Both the position numbers and the translations under genes were made by a program. From a virus (Duplodnaviria > Heunggongvirae > Uroviricota > Caudoviricetes), in the IMG/VR virus record IMGVR_UViG_2534681702_000002: a stretch of DNA of 15,630 nt. One strand, given 5' to 3'. Of the stretch, positions 1-15,630 are shown piece by piece. The notes below the pieces were generated by a model. It worked only from the letters and a program-made list of their open reading frames with translations. It was not told where the DNA came from and searched no databases. Each line of letters begins with the position of its first letter. The stretch's first letter is position 1.

Positions 1-1164
1 TTACGCCTTCTTTATATCCTCCATAATTCCAGAGTGGGACATATTTGGGACATTATCACCAAAAATGTCGTCTATTTTCCTCGCATGCTCTGTCAAATGA
101 TTAGGCGCAAGGTGAGCATACCTACGAACCATTTCTATGGACTCCCATCCGCCCATTTCCTGAAGCACTGATAATGGGACGCCTGACTGAATCAGCCAGC
201 TTGCCCAGGTGTGTCTGAGGTCATGGAAACGGAAATCTTCAATTCCTGCACGACGACAAGCTGATAGCCATGATGTCTTGCTGTCGATGCGCATCTTCCT
301 GACCGCAGGCGTTGATGTTCCATCTGCTCGCTTAGCCGCCTTGGTATGTACAAACACCCATTTGTGATGCTTGCCTATTTGATCACGCAACACTTTACAG
401 GCGGTATCGTTCAGCGCCACACCAATGGCGCGGTTTGATTTGCTCTCTTCTGGATTCACCCAGGCAACTCGTCGCTGCATGTCGATTTGTTGCCATTCCA
501 GATTTATGATGTTCGACTTTCTCAGACCAGTTGCCAGCGCAAACTTGACGACAGATTTCAGTGGTTCGGGGCACTCATCAATAAGGCGTTTTGCTTCCTC
601 CTTTTCCAGCCATCTGACTCGCTTGTTTCTGACCGCTGGTATCTTGATGACAGGCGCTTTTTCCAGCCACTTCCAGTCGCGTTCTGCAGCACGGAGAATG
701 GCCTTTATCATGGCAAGATGCTTTGCCTTTGTCTGAGTTGATACTGGCTTTGGTTCATAAACAGGCGGTTCTTTACCTTTCCTGATGGCGGCCTGAACTT
801 TCTGTTTCCATATTTCTTTCGTCTTTCTGTTATGCATTCTGCTTACAGCAGAGTAAATCTTTGCCTCCGAGATATCTTTAAGCCTTATACCCTCAAAATG
901 TTCAAGCCAGAACTCAATCCGGCTTTTATCTGAATCGAGAGATTTTTTATCAGCTTTTTCCTCAAGCCATCTTAGGCAGGCCTCTTCAAAAGTGACATCA
1001 GGTAAATCCCCTAGCTTTTCTACTCGCCAGAGTTCTGCTTTTCGCTTGTCGTGCAACTCCTGAGCTTGCCGCTTGTCCTTTGTGCCAAGAGATTCCTTAA
1101 TTCGTTTCCCGCCCGGGAGCGAATACGAGGCATACCATATTTCATTTCTGCGGAAGAGTGACAT
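1..1164 (-). CDS. intD: Phage tyrosine integrase (387 aa), DLP12 IntD-like
   Basis: Full-length minus-strand ORF with ATG at 1164..1162 and GAGGAAAG Shine-Dalgarno upstream. C-terminal region carries the tyrosine-recombinase catalytic motifs (HDLRHT...RRY). The sequence matches my recollection of E. coli K-12 IntD. Confidence 0.88.
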
Positions 1165-1391
1165 TTTCTTTCCTCTGTTATGCCATCACCCGCGCTCACC
1201 TGGACAGTATGCAGCGGAGACTGAAGCGCCGCAATGCAGGCTTGCCGTGTTGTGAGGTAAGGAGATTTTGGCTTGGTTGGATCTTTACGTGTTGCCTGTA
1301 GGCGGCCTGTTCGTATCCAGTTGGTGGCGGTTGGTCTGGATATCTTAAGAAACTGACAGGCCTCATCGAGTGTGAGGCTGTATGATTCCAT
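1020..1391 (-). CDS. xis: Excisionase-like DNA-binding protein (AlpA/Xis family), 123 aa from the ATG at 1391
   Basis: Minus-strand ORF directly upstream of int. ATG at 1391..1389 preceded by GAGGTAACC. N-terminus [31 protein letters not shown] is a typical Xis/AlpA helix-turn-helix. The 3' end overlaps int by 145 nt, which is unusually long for xis, so the C-terminal part may not be native. Confidence 0.6.
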
Positions 1392-1641
1392 GGTTACCTC
1401 TGCTTTTTGAACGCATGTCACGTAACTTCTTAATGTGTTCTGCCGTTTCGATCTCTTCTGCTATCCGATCTGCATCAGCTTTATTCACAGGTTCAAAGTC
1501 ATGATTAAAGCGGAACATGCTGGCGATACATGTTCTGCCTTTTCGGATGTAGTGAACTTTGTTGTGGGTAGAACGCAGGATTTTGCAGGGAGTGCCGTGG
1601 TGGTCGACGTACCAGGTGTTAGGCAAAATGATTCTGAACAT
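1363..1641 (-). CDS. Hypothetical small phage protein (92 aa)
   Basis: Minus-strand ORF with ATG at 1641..1639 and a GAGGTG Shine-Dalgarno 7 nt upstream. Its last ~9 codons overlap the xis start. No recognisable motif. Confidence 0.4.
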   Translation of the reverse strand: MFRIILPNTWYVDHHGTPCKILRSTHNKVHYIRKGRTCIASMFRFNHDFEPVNKADADRIAEEIETAEHIKKLRDMRSKSRGNHGIIQPHTR

Positions 1642-1654
1642 TTTTACACCTCAG

Positions 1655-1714
1655 TTGGAAGGTATGGCGAAAACACAGGTTATGTGGCTGAAAGAGGGGA
1701 TTATTAAGGCGTGA
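1655..1714 (+). pseudogene. 3' remnant (~19 codons) of the gene normally upstream of rusA (ybcO-like), lacking a start codon
   Basis: The frame ending at TGA 1712..1714, overlapping the rusA GTG, translates ...[19 protein letters not shown]. This resembles the C-terminus of the small protein I recall preceding rusA in K-12 (ybcO). The similarity is lost upstream of about 1655. Confidence 0.3.
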
Positions 1715-2073
1715 ATACCTACAGCATCACATTACCCTGGCCTCCGAGCAATAATCGCTATTACCGCCATAATCGCGGGCGCACGCACGTCAGCGCAGAG
1801 GGGCAGGCATACCGCGATAACGTCGCCAGAATCATTAAAAACGCAATGCTGGATATCGGCCTGGCTATCCCTGTGAAAATCCGCATTGAGTGCCACATGC
1901 CGGATCGCCGTCGCCGTGACCTGGATAATCTGCAAAAAGCCGCTTTTGACGCACTCACTAAAGCAGGTTTCTGGCTGGATGATGCTCAGGTCGTTGATTA
2001 CCGCGTTGTGAAGATGCCTGTTACCAAAGGTGGGAGGCTGGAACTGACCATCACCGAAATGGGGAATGAATGA
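1711..2073 (+). CDS. rusA: Holliday-junction resolvase RusA (120 aa), GTG start
   Basis: ORF translation [37 protein letters not shown]... matches recalled RusA over its full length. GTG start at 1711 with AGAGGGG upstream. Confidence 0.92.
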
Positions 2074-2210
2074 TGTTTGAGTTTAATATGGCAGAACTTC
2101 TTCGCCACCGCTGGATGCGCCTGCGCTTATATCGTTTCCCCAGTTCTGTTTTGACCGATTACCGAATACTGAGGAATTACGCCAAAACCCTGACAGGAGC
2201 AGGAGTATGA
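2070..2210 (+). CDS. ylcG: Small protein YlcG-like (46 aa)
   Basis: Not in the ORF track because it is under 60 aa. ATGATG at 2070 overlaps the rusA stop. Translation [46 protein letters not shown] matches recalled YlcG in sequence and in position between rusA and Q. Confidence 0.6.
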
Positions 2211-2295
2211 AGTCAGAGATAACAATCAACTAATACTGTTTTATTGATTTTTGCTTGTAATTGGCGTTCTGGTCTGATTTTTGTGGAGTAAGTTG

Positions 2296-2679
2296 ATGCG
2301 TGATATTCAGATGGTTCTTGAGCGTTGGGGAGCGTGGGCGGCTAATAATCATGAAGATGTGACCTGGTCGTCCATTGCCGCCGGTTTTAAGGGATTAATT
2401 ACTTCAAAAGTAAAATCTCGCCCGCAATGTTGTGACGATGACGCGATGATCATTTGCGGGTGCATGGCCCGTCTGAAAAAGAACAACAGCGATTTGCACG
2501 ATTTATTAGTAGATTATTATGTAGTCGGTATGACATTCATGTCACTGGCAGGTAAGCATTGCTGCTCTGATGGTTATATCGGGAAAAGGTTACAGAAGGC
2601 TGAGGGCATAATTGAAGGGATGTTAATGGCATTAGATATCCGGTTAGAGATGGATATCGTTGTTAATAACTCTAATTAA
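2296..2679 (+). CDS. quuD: Late-gene antiterminator Q (127 aa), phage 82/21-type
   Basis: ATG at 2296 with GGAG upstream (the track ORF begins earlier at a TTG). Cysteine-rich region ([24 protein letters not shown]) typical of Q-family proteins. Lies between rusA/ylcG and the lysis genes as in lambdoid phages. Confidence 0.8.
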
Positions 2680-2695
2680 TATGCCAATTGTTTAC

Positions 2696-2731
2696 TAAAA
2701 ATTATTAAAAATGGGGCGTTGAGACGCCCCC
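2696..2731 (-). terminator. Putative rho-independent terminator for minus-strand (nmpC) transcripts
   Basis: Perfect inverted repeat GGGGCG-ttgaga-CGCCCC at 2713..2730, followed on the minus strand by AUUUUUAAUAAUUUUU. Confidence 0.5.
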
Positions 2732-2820
2732 AAAAATAAAGGGTAATATATAACAGAAGGTTTATATAGTTAGAAGCAAGGTTGTGCTTCTAAAGGAAGT
2801 GGCTTGAGGGAGCCACTTAT

Positions 2821-2858
2821 ATGTTGGGGAGGCAAAGCCTCCCGCAACATATCTTTTT
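2821..2858 (+). terminator. Putative rho-independent terminator downstream of Q (tR'-like)
   Basis: Inverted repeat ATGTTGGGGAGGC-aaa-GCCTCCCGCAACAT at 2821..2850, followed by a TCTTTTT tract on the plus strand. Two further short hairpins lie at 2771..2792 and 2797..2820. Confidence 0.5.
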
Positions 2859-2868
2859 CGTAATCAGA

Positions 2869-3951
2869 TTAGAACTGATACACCAGACCTACAGCGACGA
2901 TGTCGTCGGTATCAATACCAGCTGTTTTGGTAAACTTACTATCGTCAATTAAGTTGATTTTGTAATCAACAAAAGTGGACATGTTTTTATTAAAGTAGTA
3001 AGTAGCACCGACATCGACATACTTGACTAAGTCTCGGTCACCATGAACACCAAGGTCTTTACCTTTTGACTGAAGGTAAGCAACAGATGGTCGCAGACCG
3101 AAGTCAAACTGATATTGTGCTACTGCTTCAAAGTTTTGTGCTTTGTTTGCAATATGGTTATTACCAAAAACGGTCATATTCTGAGTTTCAGAATATGTGG
3201 TAGCCAGATAGATATTGTTCGCATCATATTTCAGGCCTGCAGCCCATACTTCCGCATTTTTGCCGGAGGCATTGAATTTGCTCTTACCATAGGCGACCTG
3301 ACCGTCAGTGCGATCTGATTTAGCATAGGTTGCACCCACGCCGAATCCTTCATACTCATAAGTAGTGGAGAAACCGAAACCATCACCATTGGCTTCAGTT
3401 ACGTCAGTGCGGTCATTTTTACCCTGATACTGAGCAGCAAAGTTCAGGCCATCGACCAGACCAAAGAAGTCGTTGTTACGATAGGTTGCAACACCAGTGG
3501 TGCGACCAGTCATGAACACATCTGTTTGGGTCCAGGTATCGCCACCGAATTCTGGCAGAACGTCAGTCCACGCACCGATGTCGTATGCTACACCGTAGTT
3601 ACGGCCGTAATCGATTGAGCCGTAGTCACCGAATTTCAGGCCTGCAAATGCAAGACGGGTTTTGTCTTTGGAGGAACCTTGAGATTCAGCGCGGTTGCCT
3701 TTGAATTCATATTCCCACTGACCGAAACCAGTCAGTTGATCGTTGATTTGGGTTTCACCTTTGAAGCCAAGACGGGCATAAGTAGTATCACCATCATCTG
3801 CATCGTTAGAGGAAAAGTAGTGCTTGGCATTAACTTTCCCGTACAGATCCAGCTTGTTACTGTCTTTATTATAAATTTCAGCTGCCTGAGCAGACATCGT
3901 CATCAGTACTGATGCAGCTACAGCAGAAATTGCCACTGTTAATTTTTTCAT
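2869..3951 (-). CDS. nmpC: Outer-membrane porin, OmpC/Lc family (NmpC-like), 360 aa, apparently intact
   Basis: Signal peptide [23 protein letters not shown] followed by [16 protein letters not shown] and a C-terminal ...AVGLVYQF beta-barrel terminus. This is the classic general-porin signature and matches recalled NmpC/Lc. Confidence 0.85.
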
Positions 3952-4539
3952 CGTGAGCCCTTTTTTTTGAACTATTATTAAAAAATGATGTCACTGCGCG
4001 ATAAATATTCATCTAATCAATGTGATTATTTCAAGATGTAAGTTTTAGTTTCTCATTTAATTTGTGAAGTAGATCTCTATTTTTATCTGAACTTTTTCTA
4101 TCGAAACCTATTTATGGCTCTTATTTGAACAAAAATAAACCTATTAGCTAATTTATATTAATGGCTGTTATTTATGGGGGGGCTATAATTCGGTGGTTTA
4201 ATTTAAATCAACTAAAAATAACGCCGGAAATTATTTATTGGTTATTTGTTGAGGTTTTCTTATATATTTGTGGTGGTGTTTTGAACACTCGGTAGCATTC
4301 TCATAAATATCATTCAGTGGTTTACGTACGTAAAAAATTGGTTATGCTGTTAAGAGTGGTTACTTCGTCACACAGCTTAAACCCGCCGTCGAGCTGGTTT
4401 TTCCATTTTTTGAGTCTCGATATTAGCTGATAACTCAATACCTGAGTTATTCACTGACTCCGAGTCTGTTACGTTTCTGCTTTTTTGCGATACGTTGTAT
4501 TCCCTCAATTTACACCCGCTTTGTCTGCGAGGTGGGGTT

Positions 4540-6035: not shown

Positions 6036-6394
6036 CTTATTATCCTGCATTGTTAAAAACGGCAGAATCCTATGTGACAACAATTAAACGATAGTTAAAT
6101 GGATTGATGAAAATTAAAACTATATAGGTGGATGCTCAGCCTATTGGAGGAGGGGGGCACTCAGAATCCTGTGGAATGAAATAAACCGCTCTTTCTGTCC
6201 ATTACCCTTTTAGCTGCGCTGTATCGTCGCCGTATTCCCGCATTAACCATGACCGTAGCCCGACGGGGAATTCCTTCTGCGTGAGTGTGCGGGAATAATC
6301 AAAAACGATGCACACCGGGTTTTACTGTGCTGACAGACGCAGGGTTACCCTCATAGTCGCTTTTCCGGTGCGATGGTGGAAGAAACCGGGATGT

Positions 6395-7523: not shown

Positions 7524-7713
7524 CAGGCTGCGGCATTTTGTCCGCGCCGGGCTTCGCTCACTGTTCAGGCCGGAGCCACAGACCGCCGTTGAATGGGCGG
7601 ATGCTAATTACTATCTCCCGAAAGAATCCGCATACCAGGAAGGGCGCTGGGAAACACTGCCCTTTCAGCGGGCCATCATGAATGCGATGGGCAGCGACTA
7701 TAACTGTTATTAA
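7498..7713 (+). pseudogene. Terminase large subunit (gpA) N-terminal fragment, about 66 native codons then divergence and a stop
   Basis: MNISNSQVNRLRHFVRAGLRSLFRPEPQTAVEWADANYYLPKESAYQEGRWETLPFQRAIMNAMGSDY matches the recalled lambda gpA N-terminus. Downstream of about 7700 the sequence is unrelated (NCY*). The start overlaps the Nu1 end as in lambda. Confidence 0.85.
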
Positions 7714-8626
7714 TGAAAATCCGACAGCACAAGGATATCAGGCAATTGCTGTAAACACGAATGATGCTTACACCTGCCCGGCAGGTTCTTATACGACGAT
7801 ATCGTGTCTGACGAAAAGTGATAATTCCCGGTGTCGTGCAAGGTTCGGAAAAATGTCTGATAATGGTGCGTTTGTTTTTCATTCAGATGCAGTTCTGGAT
7901 CCTGTTACGGGAAATGTTGTTCATGGAAATAATGTGACGGTGACGGCAGAAAGAGTCGGTGAATGGTGGTTGTTTACCGCCACTCTTTTTGCAGATGCGG
8001 AAATGATAATCAGCTCAAGATTTGAAATCCTGGCGATGCCTGGAATCAGTATTATCCCCAATGGCTCTACGTTAGATATTGCGATGCCTCAGGCGGAGAT
8101 TGGGTCGTACAGGACGTCATTTATCATTACTGAAGGGGCTCCTGGCACTCGCTCCAGCGACATGGTGACAATACCTGTAAGAAACAATATTCACCGATTA
8201 CCATTCAGTGCTCTTGTTGAAGTTAATAAAAACTGGGATATCCCTCCCAGCAAATCACCATTAATCTTTAATGTTAAAGATTATCAGGAAAATGGTCTGT
8301 TCACGCATGGATTCCGTGGTAATAATTTCTCTGATGCCGGTTCTCCTTTTATTTCTATGGGAGGGTGTAATAAATATGTGGCAACAACCCAGAGGAAAAT
8401 CATTTCAGGCTTCCGTTGTGGCGCTGATGGAGATGTTCAGGCCGTATGTAATGGTGAATTATCTGTTGCGGCAAAAACAACATGGACTTCAATTGTTCCA
8501 CGGGCAGTATTGCGAATTGGAGGGCAGGGCACTAATGGGGAGTATCATCTTTTTGGTCATATCCGTAATCTGCGTATCTGGCATAAAGAATTAACTGATG
8601 CGCAAATGGGGGAGAGTATTAAATGA
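7682..8626 (+). CDS. Chimeric ORF (314 aa): C-terminal fragment of a phage fibre / receptor-binding-type protein with a ConA/LamG-like C-terminus; its first 7 codons are terminase-A sequence read out of frame
   Basis: C-terminal ...NGEYHLFGHIRNLRIWHKELTDAQMGESIK resembles the end of LamG/concanavalin-like lectin domains. The ATG at 7682 has no convincing Shine-Dalgarno and sits inside the gpA remnant. Domain call is pattern recognition only. Confidence 0.4.
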   Translation: MRWAATITVINENPTAQGYQAIAVNTNDAYTCPAGSYTTISCLTKSDNSRCRARFGKMSDNGAFVFHSDAVLDPVTGNVVHGNNVTVTAERVGEWWLFTATLFADAEMIISSRFEILAMPGISIIPNGSTLDIAMPQAEIGSYRTSFIITEGAPGTRSSDMVTIPVRNNIHRLPFSALVEVNKNWDIPPSKSPLIFNVKDYQENGLFTHGFRGNNFSDAGSPFISMGGCNKYVATTQRKIISGFRCGADGDVQAVCNGELSVAAKTTWTSIVPRAVLRIGGQGTNGEYHLFGHIRNLRIWHKELTDAQMGESIK

Positions 8627-8904
8627 AAGATTTAACACTCAAATTTGCAGACAGGGCCGACTTTTCGGCCTTTATGGAGAGTATTGGCTATTATGATGAC
8701 GAGTCGATGCAGGATGATATTCTTATTGACGTGATAGGTAACGTGTACAAAGAAACCGGAGAACTGACTGAAGATGGCGAACCGGTATGTGTTAAGGAAG
8801 ACGGATATTTTGTAAACGTGCGCATCATTAATGATGTAAAAAAATCGTCAATATTCGATAAATACGCGGTTGTTGTTGAGCATCAACTTCGTGGCTGGAT
8901 GTGA
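8623..8904 (+). CDS. Hypothetical acidic protein (93 aa)
   Basis: ATG overlaps the stop of the preceding ORF (AAATGA). No recognisable motif. Separated from the next ORF, in the same frame, by one TGA plus 9 nt. Confidence 0.45.
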   Translation: MKDLTLKFADRADFSAFMESIGYYDDESMQDDILIDVIGNVYKETGELTEDGEPVCVKEDGYFVNVRIINDVKKSSIFDKYAVVVEHQLRGWM

Positions 8905-8913
8905 GGGAGACAA

Positions 8914-9618
8914 ATGGCTACATCGACAGTAATTCCAGGAGATATCACCACGCTAAAGGGAGATGTCAGTAAAACTAAGGAAGATATTTCCTCAATTAAC
9001 GGAAAAGTATCAACGCTTCAGACTGATATGACCAGTGCAAAGCAGGATATCAGCACCAGATACACAAAAACTGAAGTTGATAATAAGCTGAAAAACAAAC
9101 TGGAAGTGAACGATCTGGAAAGCGGTCGTTATGGTGGAGATTTTTACCCGTTGACTGGCCGTGAAGCGTTTTATATGTGGGGATTGGGCACGACTACAGC
9201 GGCGGCAAACCTTTATCTTAATCCTGACCCTGCAATTTCGTCTGTACTGCGGTCAACATCGTCTATTCGCTATAAACATTCAGTAGAGACGATAGATTCA
9301 GAGCACGCCGATCTCATTTTCAGGATGCGCCCTGTGTGGTACAGGTCGCAATACGAAAATGACAGGCGTGACTGGGGATTCTACGGATTGATTGCCGAGG
9401 AAGTAGGAGAAATTGCCCCTCAGTTTGTACACTGGCGACCAGCTAACGAAGATGATGCTCCTGAAGCTATTTCCAGCAATGGCCTTGTTGCCGAAGGTGT
9501 AATGTACGAACGTCTGGTTGTTCCACTGATTCACCATATCCAGAAGCTGACTGAAAGAGTTGATGAACTTGAGTCAGAATTAAAGTTGTTATCCGTTTCC
9601 CGAAGCGATATCGGATAA
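8914..9618 (+). CDS. Tail-fibre-like protein (234 aa): N-terminal coiled coil plus C-terminal intramolecular-chaperone (peptidase S74-type) domain
   Basis: GAGGGAG Shine-Dalgarno before the ATG. C-terminal segment ...RMRPVWYRSQ...GFYGLIAEEVGEIAPQFVHW...GVMYERLVVPLIHHIQKLTERVDELESELK fits the conserved pattern of fibre/tailspike auto-cleaving chaperone domains. N-terminal 70 residues are heptad-like (KGDVSKTKEDISSINGKVSTLQTDMTSAKQDIS). Confidence 0.6.
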   Translation: MATSTVIPGDITTLKGDVSKTKEDISSINGKVSTLQTDMTSAKQDISTRYTKTEVDNKLKNKLEVNDLESGRYGGDFYPLTGREAFYMWGLGTTTAAANLYLNPDPAISSVLRSTSSIRYKHSVETIDSEHADLIFRMRPVWYRSQYENDRRDWGFYGLIAEEVGEIAPQFVHWRPANEDDAPEAISSNGLVAEGVMYERLVVPLIHHIQKLTERVDELESELKLLSVSRSDIG

Positions 9619-9628
9619 AGGAGGAGTA

Positions 9629-9922
9629 ATGGATATAACACCTTTCCTTCATGCGCTTTGTGCTGTGGCTGCGCAGCTACTGATTGGTCTTTTTACCGGG
9701 AACTGGGCTTACGGGGCGATAGCCGGTTGTACGTTCTTCATTGCGCGTGAACACACCCAGGCAGAATATCGCTGGATCGAAATGTTCGGGCATGGCAAGC
9801 GAATGAATATGCCGTGGTGGGGCGGTTTTGATACACGTGCATGGGATGTGGCAAGCCTGATGGATTTTGCTGTGCCGGTGGTGGCGTGTCTGCTGGTCTG
9901 GCTGTTGGTTAATCGTGGGTGA
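9629..9922 (+). CDS. Small membrane protein (97 aa) with two predicted transmembrane helices
   Basis: Strong AGGAGG Shine-Dalgarno 6 nt before the ATG. Hydrophobic stretches at about residues 8-32 and 77-94, with a Trp/Arg-rich loop between them. No recognisable family. Confidence 0.55.
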   Translation: MDITPFLHALCAVAAQLLIGLFTGNWAYGAIAGCTFFIAREHTQAEYRWIEMFGHGKRMNMPWWGGFDTRAWDVASLMDFAVPVVACLLVWLLVNRG

Positions 9923-9932
9923 AAAAAGGTGA

Positions 9933-10052
9933 GCTGTATATGCAACGGAGGAAGAAAACTCGTTGCTGGAAGCCTGGAAAAAGTATCGGGTGCTGCTAAA
10001 CCGTGTGGACACTTCCGTAGCACCAGATATCGAGTGGCTTATTCAACCATAA
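9933..10052 (+). pseudogene. tfaX: 3' remnant of a tail-fibre-assembly (Tfa) gene, about 39 codons, no start codon
   Basis: Open frame translates ...[36 protein letters not shown], matching the recalled C-terminus of lambda-type Tfa proteins. Position directly upstream of appY matches K-12 tfaX. Confidence 0.55.
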
Positions 10053-10596: not shown

Positions 10597-11339
10597 ATGG
10601 ATTATGTTTGCTCCGTAGTTTTCATCTGTCAATCATTTGATTTAATTATAAACAGGAGAGTTATCTCGTTCAAAAAAAATTCATTGTTTATTGTAAGCGA
10701 CAAAATTAGAAGGGAGTTACCAGTATGCCCCTCTAAACTAAGAATTGTTGATATAGATAAGAAAACATGTTTATCCTTTTTTATCGACGTGAATAATGAG
10801 CTGCCTGGCAAATTTACTCTTGATAAGAATGGCTATATTGCTGAAGAGGAACCTCCATTATCGCTTGTTTTTTCTCTGTTTGAAGGGATTAAAATAGCAG
10901 ACTCACACTCCCTTTGGTTAAAAGAAAGACTATGTATATCCTTACTTGCCATGTTCAAAAAACGCGAAAGTGTAAATTCATTTATACTAACAAATATAAA
11001 TACATTCACCTGTAAAATTACTGGAATAATCAGTTTTAATATTGAGCGGCAATGGCATTTAAAAGATATTGCGGAATTGATTTATACGAGTGAAAGTTTA
11101 ATAAAAAAAGATTAAGGGATGAAGGAACGTCATTTACTGAAATATTGAGAGATACTAGGATGAGGTATGCAAAAAAACTCATAACTTCAAACTCTTATTC
11201 TATCAATGTCGTAGCCCAGAAATGTGGCTATAACAGTACTTCATATTTCATATGTGCATTTAAAGATTATTATGGTGTCACGCCATCTCATTATTTTGAG
11301 AAAATAATCGGCGTCACAGATGGAATAAACAGGTAATGA
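10597..11339 (+). pseudogene. appY: AraC-family regulator AppY, disrupted by a 1-bp frameshift at an A7 run (11103..11109) and by an IS1 insertion 12 nt before its native stop
   Basis: The 172-aa ORF (10597..11115) and the 63-aa ORF (11145..11336) are in different frames, yet together form a continuous AraC-type C-terminal helix-turn-helix domain (...[19 protein letters not shown] / [25 protein letters not shown]...[18 protein letters not shown]). The native last codons (AAA ACA ATT GAC TGA) lie at 12882..12896, beyond the IS1 pair. Confidence 0.85.
11323..11331. repeat. 9-bp target-site duplication GAATAAACA, left copy, of the outer IS1
   Basis: Identical 9-mer immediately flanks both ends of the outer IS1 (11323..11331 and 12876..12884). 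Confidence 0.85.
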
Positions 11340-11378
11340 CTCCAACTTATTGATAGTGTTTTAGGTAGTGACTCCAAC

Positions 11379-11882
11379 TTACTGATAGTGTTTTATGTTC
11401 AGATAATGCCCGATGACCTTGTCATGCAGCTCCACCGATTTTGAGAACGACAGTGACTTCCGTCCCAGCCTTGCCAGATGTTGTCTCAGATTCAGATTAT
11501 GTCGCTCAATGCGCTGAGTGTAACGCTTGCTGATAACGTGCAGCTTTCCCTTCAGGCGTGATTCATACAGCGGCCAGCCATCCGTCATCCATACCACGAC
11601 CTCAAAGGCCGACAGCAGGCTCAGAAGACGCGCCAGTGTGGCCAGAGTGCGTTCACCGAAAACGTGCGCCACAACTGTCCTCCGTATCCTGTCATACGCG
11701 TAAAACAGCCAGCGCTGACGTGATTTAGCACCGACGTAGCCCCACTGTTCGTCCATTTCCGCGCAGACAATCACATCACTGCCCGGTTGTATGCGCGAGG
11801 TTACCGACTGCGGCCTGAGTTTTTTAAGTGACGTAAAACCGTGTTGAGGCCAACGCCCATAATGCGGGCAGTTGCCCGGCAT
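11379..11882 (-). CDS. insB: IS1 InsB reading frame (167 aa), expressed as the InsAB' transposase by -1 frameshifting; inner copy
   Basis: Translation matches IS1 InsB. Overlaps insA in the -1 frame. Identical at protein level to the copy at 14634..15137. Confidence 0.9.
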
Positions 11883-12076
11883 CCAACGCCATTCATGGCC
11901 ATATCAATGATTTTCTGGTGCGTACCGGGTTGAGAAGCGGTGTAAGTGAACTGCAGTTGCCATGTTTTACGGCAGTGAGAGCAGAGATAGCGCTGATGTC
12001 CGGCGGTGCTTTTGCCGTTACGCACCACCCCGTCAGTAGCTGAACAGGAGGGACAGCTGATAGAAACAGAAGCCAC
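11801..12076 (-). CDS. insA: IS1 InsA (91 aa), inner copy
   Basis: [43 protein letters not shown]... is the zinc-finger plus HTH InsA. The A6C frameshift motif (TTAAAAAAC) lies at its 3' end. Confidence 0.9.
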
Positions 12077-12104
12077 TGGAGCACCTCAAAAACACCATCA
12101 TACA

Positions 12105-12626
12105 CTAAATCAGTAAGTTGGCAGCATCACCGTGTTTTATGTTCAGATAATGCCCGATGACTTTGTCATGCAGCTCCACCGATTTTGAGAACGACAGCGA
12201 CTTCCGTCCCAGCCGTGCCAGGTGCTGCCTCAGATTCAGGTTATGCCGCTCAATTCGCTGCGTATATCGCTTGCTGATTGCGTGCAGCTTTCCCTTCAGG
12301 CGGGATTCATACAGCGGCCAGCCATCCGTCATCCATATCACCACGTCAAAGGGTGACAGCAGGCTCATAAGACGCCCCAGCGTCGCCATAGTGCGTTCAC
12401 CGAATACGTGCGCAACAACCGTCTTCCGGAGCCTGTCATACGCGTAAAACAGCCAGCGCTGGCGCGATTTAGCCCCGACGTATCCCCACTGTTCGTCCAT
12501 TTCCGCGCAGACGATGACGTCACTGCCCGGCTGTATGCGCGAGGTTACCGACTGCGGCCTGAGTTTTTTAAATGGCGGAAAATCGTGTTGAGGCCAACGC
12601 CCATAATGCGGGCGGTTGCCCGGCAT
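12105..12626 (-). CDS. insB: IS1 InsB reading frame, outer copy; C-terminus altered (…[11 protein letters not shown]) because the ORF runs into the inserted inner IS1
   Basis: About 90% identical to the inner InsB. The last two native codons (YQ) are replaced by read-through into the inner IS1 end, extending the ORF to 173 aa. Confidence 0.8.
12132..12139. repeat. 8-bp target-site duplication GTGTTTTA, right copy, of the inner IS1 (left copy at 11356..11363)
   Basis: Direct 8-bp repeat, itself part of the outer IS1 sequence, flanking the inner 768-bp element. Confidence 0.85.
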
Positions 12627-12820
12627 CCAACGCCATTCATGGCCATATCAATGATTTTCTGGTGCGTACCGGGTTGAGAAGCGGTGTAAGTGAACTGCAG
12701 TTGCCATGTTTTACGGCAGTGAGAGCAGAGATAGCGCTGATGTCCGGCAGTGCTTTTGCCGTTACGCACCACCCCGTCAGTAGCTGAACAGGAGGGACAG
12801 CTGATAGAAACAGAAGCCAC
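12545..12820 (-). CDS. insA: IS1 InsA (91 aa), outer copy
   Basis: InsA-like. Differs from the inner copy at two residues (…GLNTIFRHL versus …GLNTVLRHL). Confidence 0.9.
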
Positions 12821-12875
12821 TGGAGCACCTCAAAAACACCATCATACACTAAATCAGTAAGTTGGCAGCATCACC

Positions 12876-14100: not shown

Positions 14101-14439
14101 AAAAGTTCTCCATTCAATCGTTTTAATGATTGAATATGTATTTTTTATATCTAACTTAATGAGTCAATTACATATTGCTCCACTGTTTATATTTTGTTTA
14201 GTATTGAATGATTATCACAATGCGCTATCTGTTTTTGGTTTAATTATCTGTTATTGTTTCATATTGCGGTTTTACTGTGTGGTTTTTTTATGCTTTTGTG
14301 GTGCTTTTATCTATTTAAGTGCCATGCCTTTAGAGGCATATAAGCGAAAATAGCATGAGGTTTATCCTCAATTACTATGTTTTTGGTGATGCTGCCAACT
14401 TACTGATTTAGTGTATGATGGTGTTTTTGAGGTGCTCCA

Positions 14440-14715
14440 GTGGCTTCTGTTTCTATCAGCTGTCCCTCCTGTTCAGCTACTGACGGGGTGGTGCGTAACG
14501 GCAAAAGCACCGCCGGACATCAGCGCTATCTCTGCTCTCACTGCCGTAAAACATGGCAACTGCAGTTCACTTACACCGCTTCTCAACCCGGTACGCACCA
14601 GAAAATCATTGATATGGCCATGAATGGCGTTGGATGCCGGGCAACTGCCCGCATTATGGGCGTTGGCCTCAACACGGTTTTACGTCACTTAAAAAACTCA
14701 GGCCGCAGTCGGTAA
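14440..14715 (+). CDS. insA: IS1 InsA (91 aa), third copy
   Basis: Protein identical to InsA of the inner IS1. Confidence 0.9.
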
Positions 14716-15137
14716 CCTCGCGCATACAACCGGGCAGTGATGTGATTGTCTGCGCGGAAATGGACGAACAGTGGGGCTACGTCGGTGCTAAATCACGTCA
14801 GCGCTGGCTGTTTTACGCGTATGACAGGATACGGAGGACAGTTGTGGCGCACGTTTTCGGTGAACGCACTCTGGCCACACTGGCGCGTCTTCTGAGCCTG
14901 CTGTCGGCCTTTGAGGTCGTGGTATGGATGACGGATGGCTGGCCGCTGTATGAATCACGCCTGAAGGGAAAGCTGCACGTTATCAGCAAGCGTTACACTC
15001 AGCGCATTGAGCGACATAATCTGAATCTGAGACAACATCTGGCAAGGCTGGGACGGAAGTCACTGTCGTTCTCAAAATCGGTGGAGCTGCATGACAAGGT
15101 CATCGGGCATTATCTGAACATAAAACACTATCAGTAA
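14634..15137 (+). CDS. insB: IS1 InsB reading frame (167 aa), third copy
   Basis: Protein identical to InsB of the inner IS1. A6C frameshift motif TTAAAAAACTC at about 14690. Confidence 0.9.
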
Positions 15138-15154
15138 GTTGGAGTCACTACCCG

Positions 15155-15630
15155 TTAGCGGATATTTGTTTGCCTCCTTTTTTTTACCCAGCATACCCCA
15201 TCCCAACAATTTGAATTAAATGTCGTAAAATTGATAACTTCTTTACCTTTTGAAAAATATGTTATTGGGCAAAACTCATCTCCACTTAATGGTTTAAAGC
15301 TGGTTATTATGTCACAATTTAATTGTTGTGATAGTGATTGAGCGATGAAATCAGTTAGAGATGGAAGATACTTGCTTTCAATCGATGTTGTTGATGTGCC
15401 GAAATCAACTTCATAAGAAAAATCAATCTTCGCTAGTAATTCAATATATTCTGCATCTTTGTCAATAAAAGATGTGTCATAAGTAATGTTTTTTTATACT
15501 CATTTACATCAAAGTAGTCATATTTTAATATCGAAAAGTCAATGTCTAGAGCATTTACAAACTTATAAATACTATCGGTTAGTTTACTTTTATCTTTATA
15601 CTCTATGAGTATACTTGATTTGGTGATCAT
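15155..15630 (-). pseudogene. Low-GC gene of unknown function, frameshifted at an A7 run (plus-strand T7 at 15489..15495); stop codon 2 bp from the IS1 end
   Basis: The minus-strand ATG sits exactly at the window edge, so the true N-terminus may lie beyond it. Frame a reads MITKSS...DYFDVNEYKK and stops at 15433. The adjacent frame continues NITYDTSFIDKDAEYIELLAKIDFSYEVDFG...CWVKKRRQTNIR* for about 113 codons with no Met, so it is a continuation rather than a separate gene. Identity unknown. Confidence 0.4.

Follow-up and report, generated by a model that had tools for sequence, protein, structure and literature searches.

Loss of the early region at a TGGA junction leaves int and xis beside rusA in a DLP12-family prophage of one Escherichia coli lineage

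DLP12 was found to be the most prevalent of the five K-12 cryptic prophages analysed, being present in 74% of 638 strains, and such elements have been described as "grounded" prophages (PMC6379469). Its rusA gene encodes a Holliday-junction resolvase in which D70 is catalytic; the gene is quiescent in K-12, and insertions of IS2 or IS10 upstream activate it (PMC1636454), in agreement with the statement in a first-pass annotation of the DNA studied here that rusA is silent in K-12 unless activated from upstream. Fuller relatives of this prophage are found in the O26:H11 strain 11368 and in the inducible phage ev243, both of which have approximately 12.4 kb between the starts of int and rusA. 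The order in ev243 is int-DUF4222-...-cI-cro-O-P-nin-rusA-Q, and in both relatives the interval is occupied by a DksA/TraR-like gene, small ORFs, exo, bet, gam, a repressor, cro, cII, genes for replication, and the nin genes up to and including ybcO.

The stretch of DNA analysed here (15,630 nucleotides, hereafter the window) is, judging by its gene content and neighbours, the left part of a DLP12-family cryptic (defective) lambdoid prophage integrated at argU. According to the annotation of genomes identical to the window, tRNA-Arg (argU) ends 15 bp ahead of window position 1, and the prophage lies immediately 3' of tRNA-Arg with int reading towards the tRNA, a geometry alike to that of K-12. 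In the sister genome M9682-C1 (O6:H16), a 47-bp perfect repeat of the argU 3' end occurs at 15042-15088 and 28851-28897 of the extracted locus (L001), and these att repeats, of which the second lies between ompT and envY, are both outside the window. A megablast search with positions 900-2300 against 5,426 complete E. coli genomes gave 100% matches, annotated as intD, HTH pseudogene, DUF4222, hypothetical protein, rusA, and ylcG. To the right of ylcG, M9682-C1 carries quuD, an intact nmpC/ompC-like porin gene, essD, rrrD, rzpD, iss/bor, ylcI, nohD, tail-fibre fragments, appY, IS1, and ompT; intD and the late genes (rusA, ylcG, quuD, nmpC, essD, rrrD, rzpD, bor, nohD, appY, ompT) are collinear with K-12, in BLAST blocks of 91-99.8% identity. 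The features that surround the junction are as follows.

1-1164, minus strand: intD, intact P22-type tyrosine integrase of 387 aa (Pfam Phage_integrase, E=5.5e-47)
1020-1391, minus strand: xis, complete P22-type excisionase of 123 aa from the ATG at 1391 (phrog_2907; Pfam HTH_17)
1363-1641, minus strand: DUF4222 gene, 92 aa, the usual neighbour upstream of xis (Pfam DUF4222, E=1.7e-19; phrog_285, E=7.7e-38)
1501-1707, plus strand: ORF across the junction, antisense to DUF4222; 'hypothetical protein' WP_236920177.1 in PGAP
1559-1714, plus strand: ORF across the junction in the ybcO reading frame
1656-1659, no strand: deletion junction, a 4-bp microhomology (TGGA) common to both parents (three-way alignment)
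1658-1714, plus strand: ybcO (DUF1364) remnant, the last 18 codons and the stop (alignment with the YbcO C-terminus of K-12 and O26)
1711-2073, plus strand: rusA, intact Holliday-junction resolvase gene, 120 aa, GTG start (Pfam RusA, E=2.1e-22)
2070-2210, plus strand: ylcG (annotation of identical genomes; PHROG match, phrog_2705 and phrog_79 covering the ylcG-quuD stretch 2070-2679)
2296-2679, plus strand: quuD, Q antiterminator (annotation of identical genomes; PHROG match)

The genes int-xis-DUF4222 read leftward and rusA-ylcG-quuD rightward, which places two modules back to back, with 546 bp between the start codons of int and rusA and 69 bp between those of DUF4222 and rusA. IntD is annotated as WP_000051902.1 in the identical genomes, and has 99.8% nucleotide identity to K-12 intD and 73% amino acid identity to P22 Int. 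The 92-aa ORF, which the first-pass annotation had left as unknown, belongs to DUF4222/phrog_285, a normal neighbour of xis; it occupies a matching position beside xis in the O26 prophage, ev243, and SfI, and has retained its ribosome-binding site (GAGGTG), the breakpoint being 15 bp upstream of its ATG. With ylcG and quuD in place, the downstream context of rusA is unchanged. An Rfam scan of positions 1-4500 for structured RNA gave zero matches.

Several further differences were observed in the remainder of the window. The nmpC/OmpC-like prophage porin gene (2869-3951, minus strand) is intact and encodes 360 aa, while the K-12 copy is split by IS5; the K-12 ybcV-ybcW segment (bor/iss to ylcI) is missing at approximately 6090-6377, and the tail-fibre region at approximately 7700-9940 is unlike that of K-12. 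In appY (ORF 10597-11115), a 1-bp deletion at approximately 11103 relative to M9682-C1 cuts AppY to 172 aa, either through a real frameshift or a sequencing error. Two tandem copies of IS1 follow appY (11363-12875), a third, inverted copy lies beyond ompT (14385-15152), and the last 478 bp (15153-15630) are not the envY side of M9682-C1 but an unannotated stretch present in 575 genomes. This suggests that the right end of the window is an IS1-bounded rearrangement, the exact arrangement of which is absent from every complete genome in the collection.

The deletion and its breakpoints can be read directly from a three-way alignment that includes the O26 prophage. K-12 (L002) matches the window at 1-1259 with 99.8% and at 1656-2400 with 98.5% identity, and the O26:H11 11368 prophage (L004) matches at 1-1659 (L004 12742-14400, 99.94%) and again at 1656-2400 (L004 26208-26952, 97.6%); ev243 gives the same left and right parental matches as the O26 prophage. 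Homology on the ybcO-rusA side begins at 1656 and homology on the DUF4222 side stops at 1659, so that the breakpoint lies within 1656-1659, where parent identity switches at TGGA. It was thus well placed by the first-pass annotation, which had put a deletion endpoint near 1655 and had described int/xis as lying directly by rusA, about 550 bp away, with the early region missing. What is absent relative to the O26 prophage amounts to one TGGA copy plus the 11,807 bp between the copies, i.e., 11,811 bp, a size that applies to this comparison, as lambdoid mosaicism means that the real ancestor may differ in the deleted interval. Because the right-hand parent departs from O26 in its details, the figure for the size and the description of the deletion as one step should both be taken as approximate. 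Alignment with K-12 DLP12, as had been proposed, does map the right edge at 1656, but K-12 fails as a parent since 1260-1655 is missing there. The layout of K-12 was accordingly ruled out as parental: nothing in its DLP12 matches this segment, and it has deletions and insertions of its own. The estimate of about 10 kb between int/xis and rusA in K-12 needs revision as well, to 7.4 kb there and approximately 12.4 kb in intact relatives.

To the right of the junction, the predicted remnant of about 19 codons of the gene before rusA proved to be 18 codons and the stop of ybcO, and the expected similarity was found, with 1658-1714 matching the YbcO C-terminus. In K-12 this C-terminus reads LEGMARTQVIWLKEGVIKA followed by the stop, and the window remnant differs from it at three positions, all conservative. 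The complete 96-aa YbcO/DUF1364 ORF is not in the window, where only those final codons remain; the ybcO stop shares bases with the GTG that starts rusA (GTGA), an arrangement also seen in the native ybcO-rusA pair. RusA itself is identical to K-12 RusA at 119 of its 120 residues (sole difference M53I), has a full-length RusA domain (PF05866, 80.5 bits against a cut-off of 22.8), and has the catalytic set D70, D72, and D91 in place (DLD at 70-72, DD at 90-91). The two ORFs that cross the junction on the plus strand (1501-1707 and 1559-1714) gave no Pfam or PHROG matches above threshold; they were rejected as family members and treated as by-products of the deletion, and the former (WP_236920177.1) is probably spurious.

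The excisionase gene has remained complete. Its ORF extends over 1020-1421, translation properly beginning at the ATG at 1391, and residues 1-116 of the product align with positions 2-117 of the 117 positions in the phrog_2907 profile (E=5.9e-46, full length), with HTH_17 at the N-terminal residues 6-36 (Pfam). All 123 aa are identical to the corresponding ORF of isolated phages, namely ev243, 2G7b, PhiR30_1, Turner, and others; identity is roughly 80% to the annotated excisionases of epsilon34 and SfI, and 78% over all 116 residues to P22 Xis. The overlap of 145 nt between xis and int reported in the first-pass annotation is correct, but it is not unusual as had been thought: by annotated coordinates it is also 145 nt in epsilon34 and is 124 nt in P22 and SfI, and it is a family trait of P22-type modules and no oddity. 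In all junction-carrying genomes, PGAP calls xis a pseudogene of 22 codons ('HTH domain, missing C-terminus'; 1326-1391, minus strand). This is an annotation under-call of a complete gene, since the ORF is unbroken over its 123 aa and has the same sequence in inducible phages. PGAP hence makes two errors at this locus, the other being the spurious ORF over the junction.

Of the 5,426 complete E. coli genomes, 29 contain the junction (query 1590-1730) as a single uninterrupted match of 100% identity. The xis-DUF4222 segment is kept in 1,091 genomes, and at least 80% of the O26-type int-to-quuD interval is retained in 132; set against these numbers, the 29 genomes indicate that the compact int-xis-rusA layout is a derived, clonal state of one E. 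coli lineage. For ten of the 29, which are the genomes that the lineage placement covers, a 2026 paper gives ETEC lineage 2, ST-4, O6:H16, CS2+CS3, isolated between 1983 and 2014 (E143, E272, E1624, E1649 (LR882973), TW10598, 2014EL-1346-6, 2011EL-1370-2, 99-3165, B2C, and F5656C1). The prophage that carries the junction goes unmentioned in this ETEC lineage 2 genome paper. Within this diarrhoea-causing ETEC lineage, the TGGA junction is a clean and stable marker, and a possible PCR target, for the lineage 2 genomes in which it occurs.

Prophages of this kind in E. coli have repeatedly lost the early region while keeping int and the rusA-Q-porin-lysis block, as is seen from the following cases.

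2017-03-3CC: traR/dksA-like remnant joined to truncated ninE (O26 ~14525 / 25827; ~11.3 kb)
14EC033 and two further strains: rusA directly preceded by a zapA-like remnant (O26 ~14847 / 26233; ~11.4 kb)
K-12: 306-bp (exoD') and 322-bp (peaD') fragments left, plus foreign genes (multi-step loss)
ECL27977: int-HTH joined to rzpD (larger loss)

This recurrence fits the published picture of "grounded" prophages (PMC6379469), and the junction described here is an ordinary lineage-specific decay allele of a well-known cryptic prophage. In 2017-03-3CC, rusA (L003 4319-4681) is interrupted by a stop codon and carries a pseudogene annotation, which shows that rusA is not always preserved.

The reading preferred here, to which a probability of about 85% is given, is that a DLP12-family prophage at argU lost roughly 11.8 kb of early region in one lineage through one illegitimate recombination at TGGA, and that rusA was not activated as a result. 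One end of the deleted stretch would lie 15 bp ahead of the DUF4222 start codon and the other inside ybcO, of which the last 18 codons are spared. Going by the intact relatives, the whole early region would have gone with it, i.e., the DksA-like gene, exo/bet/gam, the early promoters together with the repressor and cro, cII, the genes for replication, and the nin stretch as far as ybcO. Both the int-xis-DUF4222 and the rusA-ylcG-quuD modules would then be left without phage early promoters, and int and xis, though intact, would presumably not be expressed. Such a deletion would lock the prophage in place, as one of several independent decays of the early region in E. coli.

Against this, the junction could have arisen by recombination between different lambdoid prophages that brought in a foreign rusA-Q segment, with the loss of DNA following or accompanying the exchange. 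The window is 100% identical over 1656-1730 to the rusA modules of other lambdoid prophages, and a lambda-like prophage at ybhC, in which ybcO is already truncated, has a RusA with the same accession (WP_001099705.1) as that of M9682-C1, a genome identical to the window across rusA; moreover, identity to O26 and K-12 drops from 99.8-99.9% on the left side to 97.6-98.5% on the right. The gene order of the late region downstream is typical of DLP12, however, and 4 bp of homology at the junction points to illegitimate joining and not to homologous exchange, which makes this origin unlikely; the early region is lost in either case. That the short int-xis-rusA arrangement is ancestral and the longer versions arose by insertion is vanishingly improbable, given the rarity of the junction among complete genomes, the identity of the remnant as the 3' end of a ybcO gene that is complete elsewhere, and the presence of the full 12-kb early region at this place in inducible phages and fuller prophages; the first-pass annotation was right to propose a deletion and not a common ancestral layout. 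An assembly artefact has a next to negligible chance of explaining a junction that 29 complete genomes, assembled independently in several laboratories, share in identical form.

It is quite unlikely, too, that the deletion has put rusA under new transcription, either from a promoter at the junction or by read-through from argU, 1.7 kb upstream on the same strand, with constitutive RusA as in rus-1/rus-2 as the outcome. The quiescence of rusA in K-12 and its activation by upstream IS elements speak for such a change, as does the near-consensus argU promoter (TTGACT-16-TATAAT; L001 14951-14978, plus strand) just left of the window; this is the sole strong rightward promoter nearby and points into the antisense strand of int, and the only terminator-like structures on the way to rusA are two modest hairpins (window 414-431 and 712-727). 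The hairpin at 414-431, the first on the plus strand, stands in the path of read-through with its 5 G-C pairs and T-rich tail. No IS is present in 1165-1710, where an activating element of the rus type would be expected. A consensus scan found no sigma-70-like site on the plus strand between int and rusA; the best score in a PWM scan of 1100-1715 (plus strand) was 7.1, below the mean best of shuffled sequences (9.3, sd 1.5) and with lacP1 at 10.4 on the same scale, although promoter prediction is weak evidence on expression. Upstream of DUF4222 on the minus strand, consensus and PWM scans likewise found no sigma-70-like site, and the idea that the deletion gave rise to a promoter in or close to the junction, on either strand, was rejected, as nothing rose over the shuffle background. 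The phage early promoters and the ybcO start have been deleted, and translational coupling of the rusA GTG to ybcO has probably been lost.

The suggestion that the new context could change rusA expression consequently finds no support in the sequence, with nothing promoter-like in 1100-1715 (plus strand) and no IS. Since no promoter was gained and the coupled ybcO reading frame was lost, rusA would be expressed no better than in K-12, and is expected to be as quiet as it is there or quieter. An expressed rusA at this locus would amount to a natural ruv-bypass allele; the sequence gives no pointer that way. It is a long shot that read-through from the constitutive argU promoter gives this globally successful ETEC lineage a low constitutive level of RusA, matching in nature what the rus suppressor alleles do in the laboratory, in which case the repeated independent deletions, with rusA-Q-nmpC always spared, would reflect selection to keep these genes.

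Compared with known systems, the window resembles the rus-1/rus-2 alleles (IS2 or IS10 upstream of rusA) in that the DNA upstream of rusA is altered; those alleles gain an outward-reading promoter, whereas the window has lost DNA and has neither an IS nor a promoter-like site. The P22 int-xis module is similar in that xis overlaps int in another reading frame, but the window Xis is 7 residues longer on the C-terminal side, and the attachment site is argU and not thrW, which is the attachment site of P22. The closest relatives are ev243 (genus Nesevirus) and the O26:H11 11368 prophage, the latter likewise at argU. They are 99.94% identical to the window in int-xis-DUF4222 and 97.6-97.7% identical in rusA-ylcG-Q, but their 12-kb early region (DksA-like gene, exo/bet/gam, N, cI, cro, cII, O, P, nin) is missing from the window. 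With K-12 DLP12, the window shares the argU site and the late order rusA-ylcG-quuD-nmpC-essD-rrrD-rzpD-bor...nohD...appY-ompT. The 7.4-kb gap between int and rusA in K-12 (6.1 kb without IS3, which accounts for 1.26 kb) contains exoD', peaD', renD::IS3, emrE, ybcK-L-M, ylcH, ybcN, ninE, and ybcO, of which all but the ybcO remnant are missing from the window. Conversely, K-12 is without a counterpart of window 1260-1655 (the xis N-terminus and DUF4222), both of which are complete in the window, and its xisD is a pseudogene that has lost the N-terminal part and abuts the exoD fragment. The prophage of the window and K-12 DLP12 would hence be independent decay products, and K-12 DLP12, being itself derived, is a poor reference for the DLP12 prophage family.
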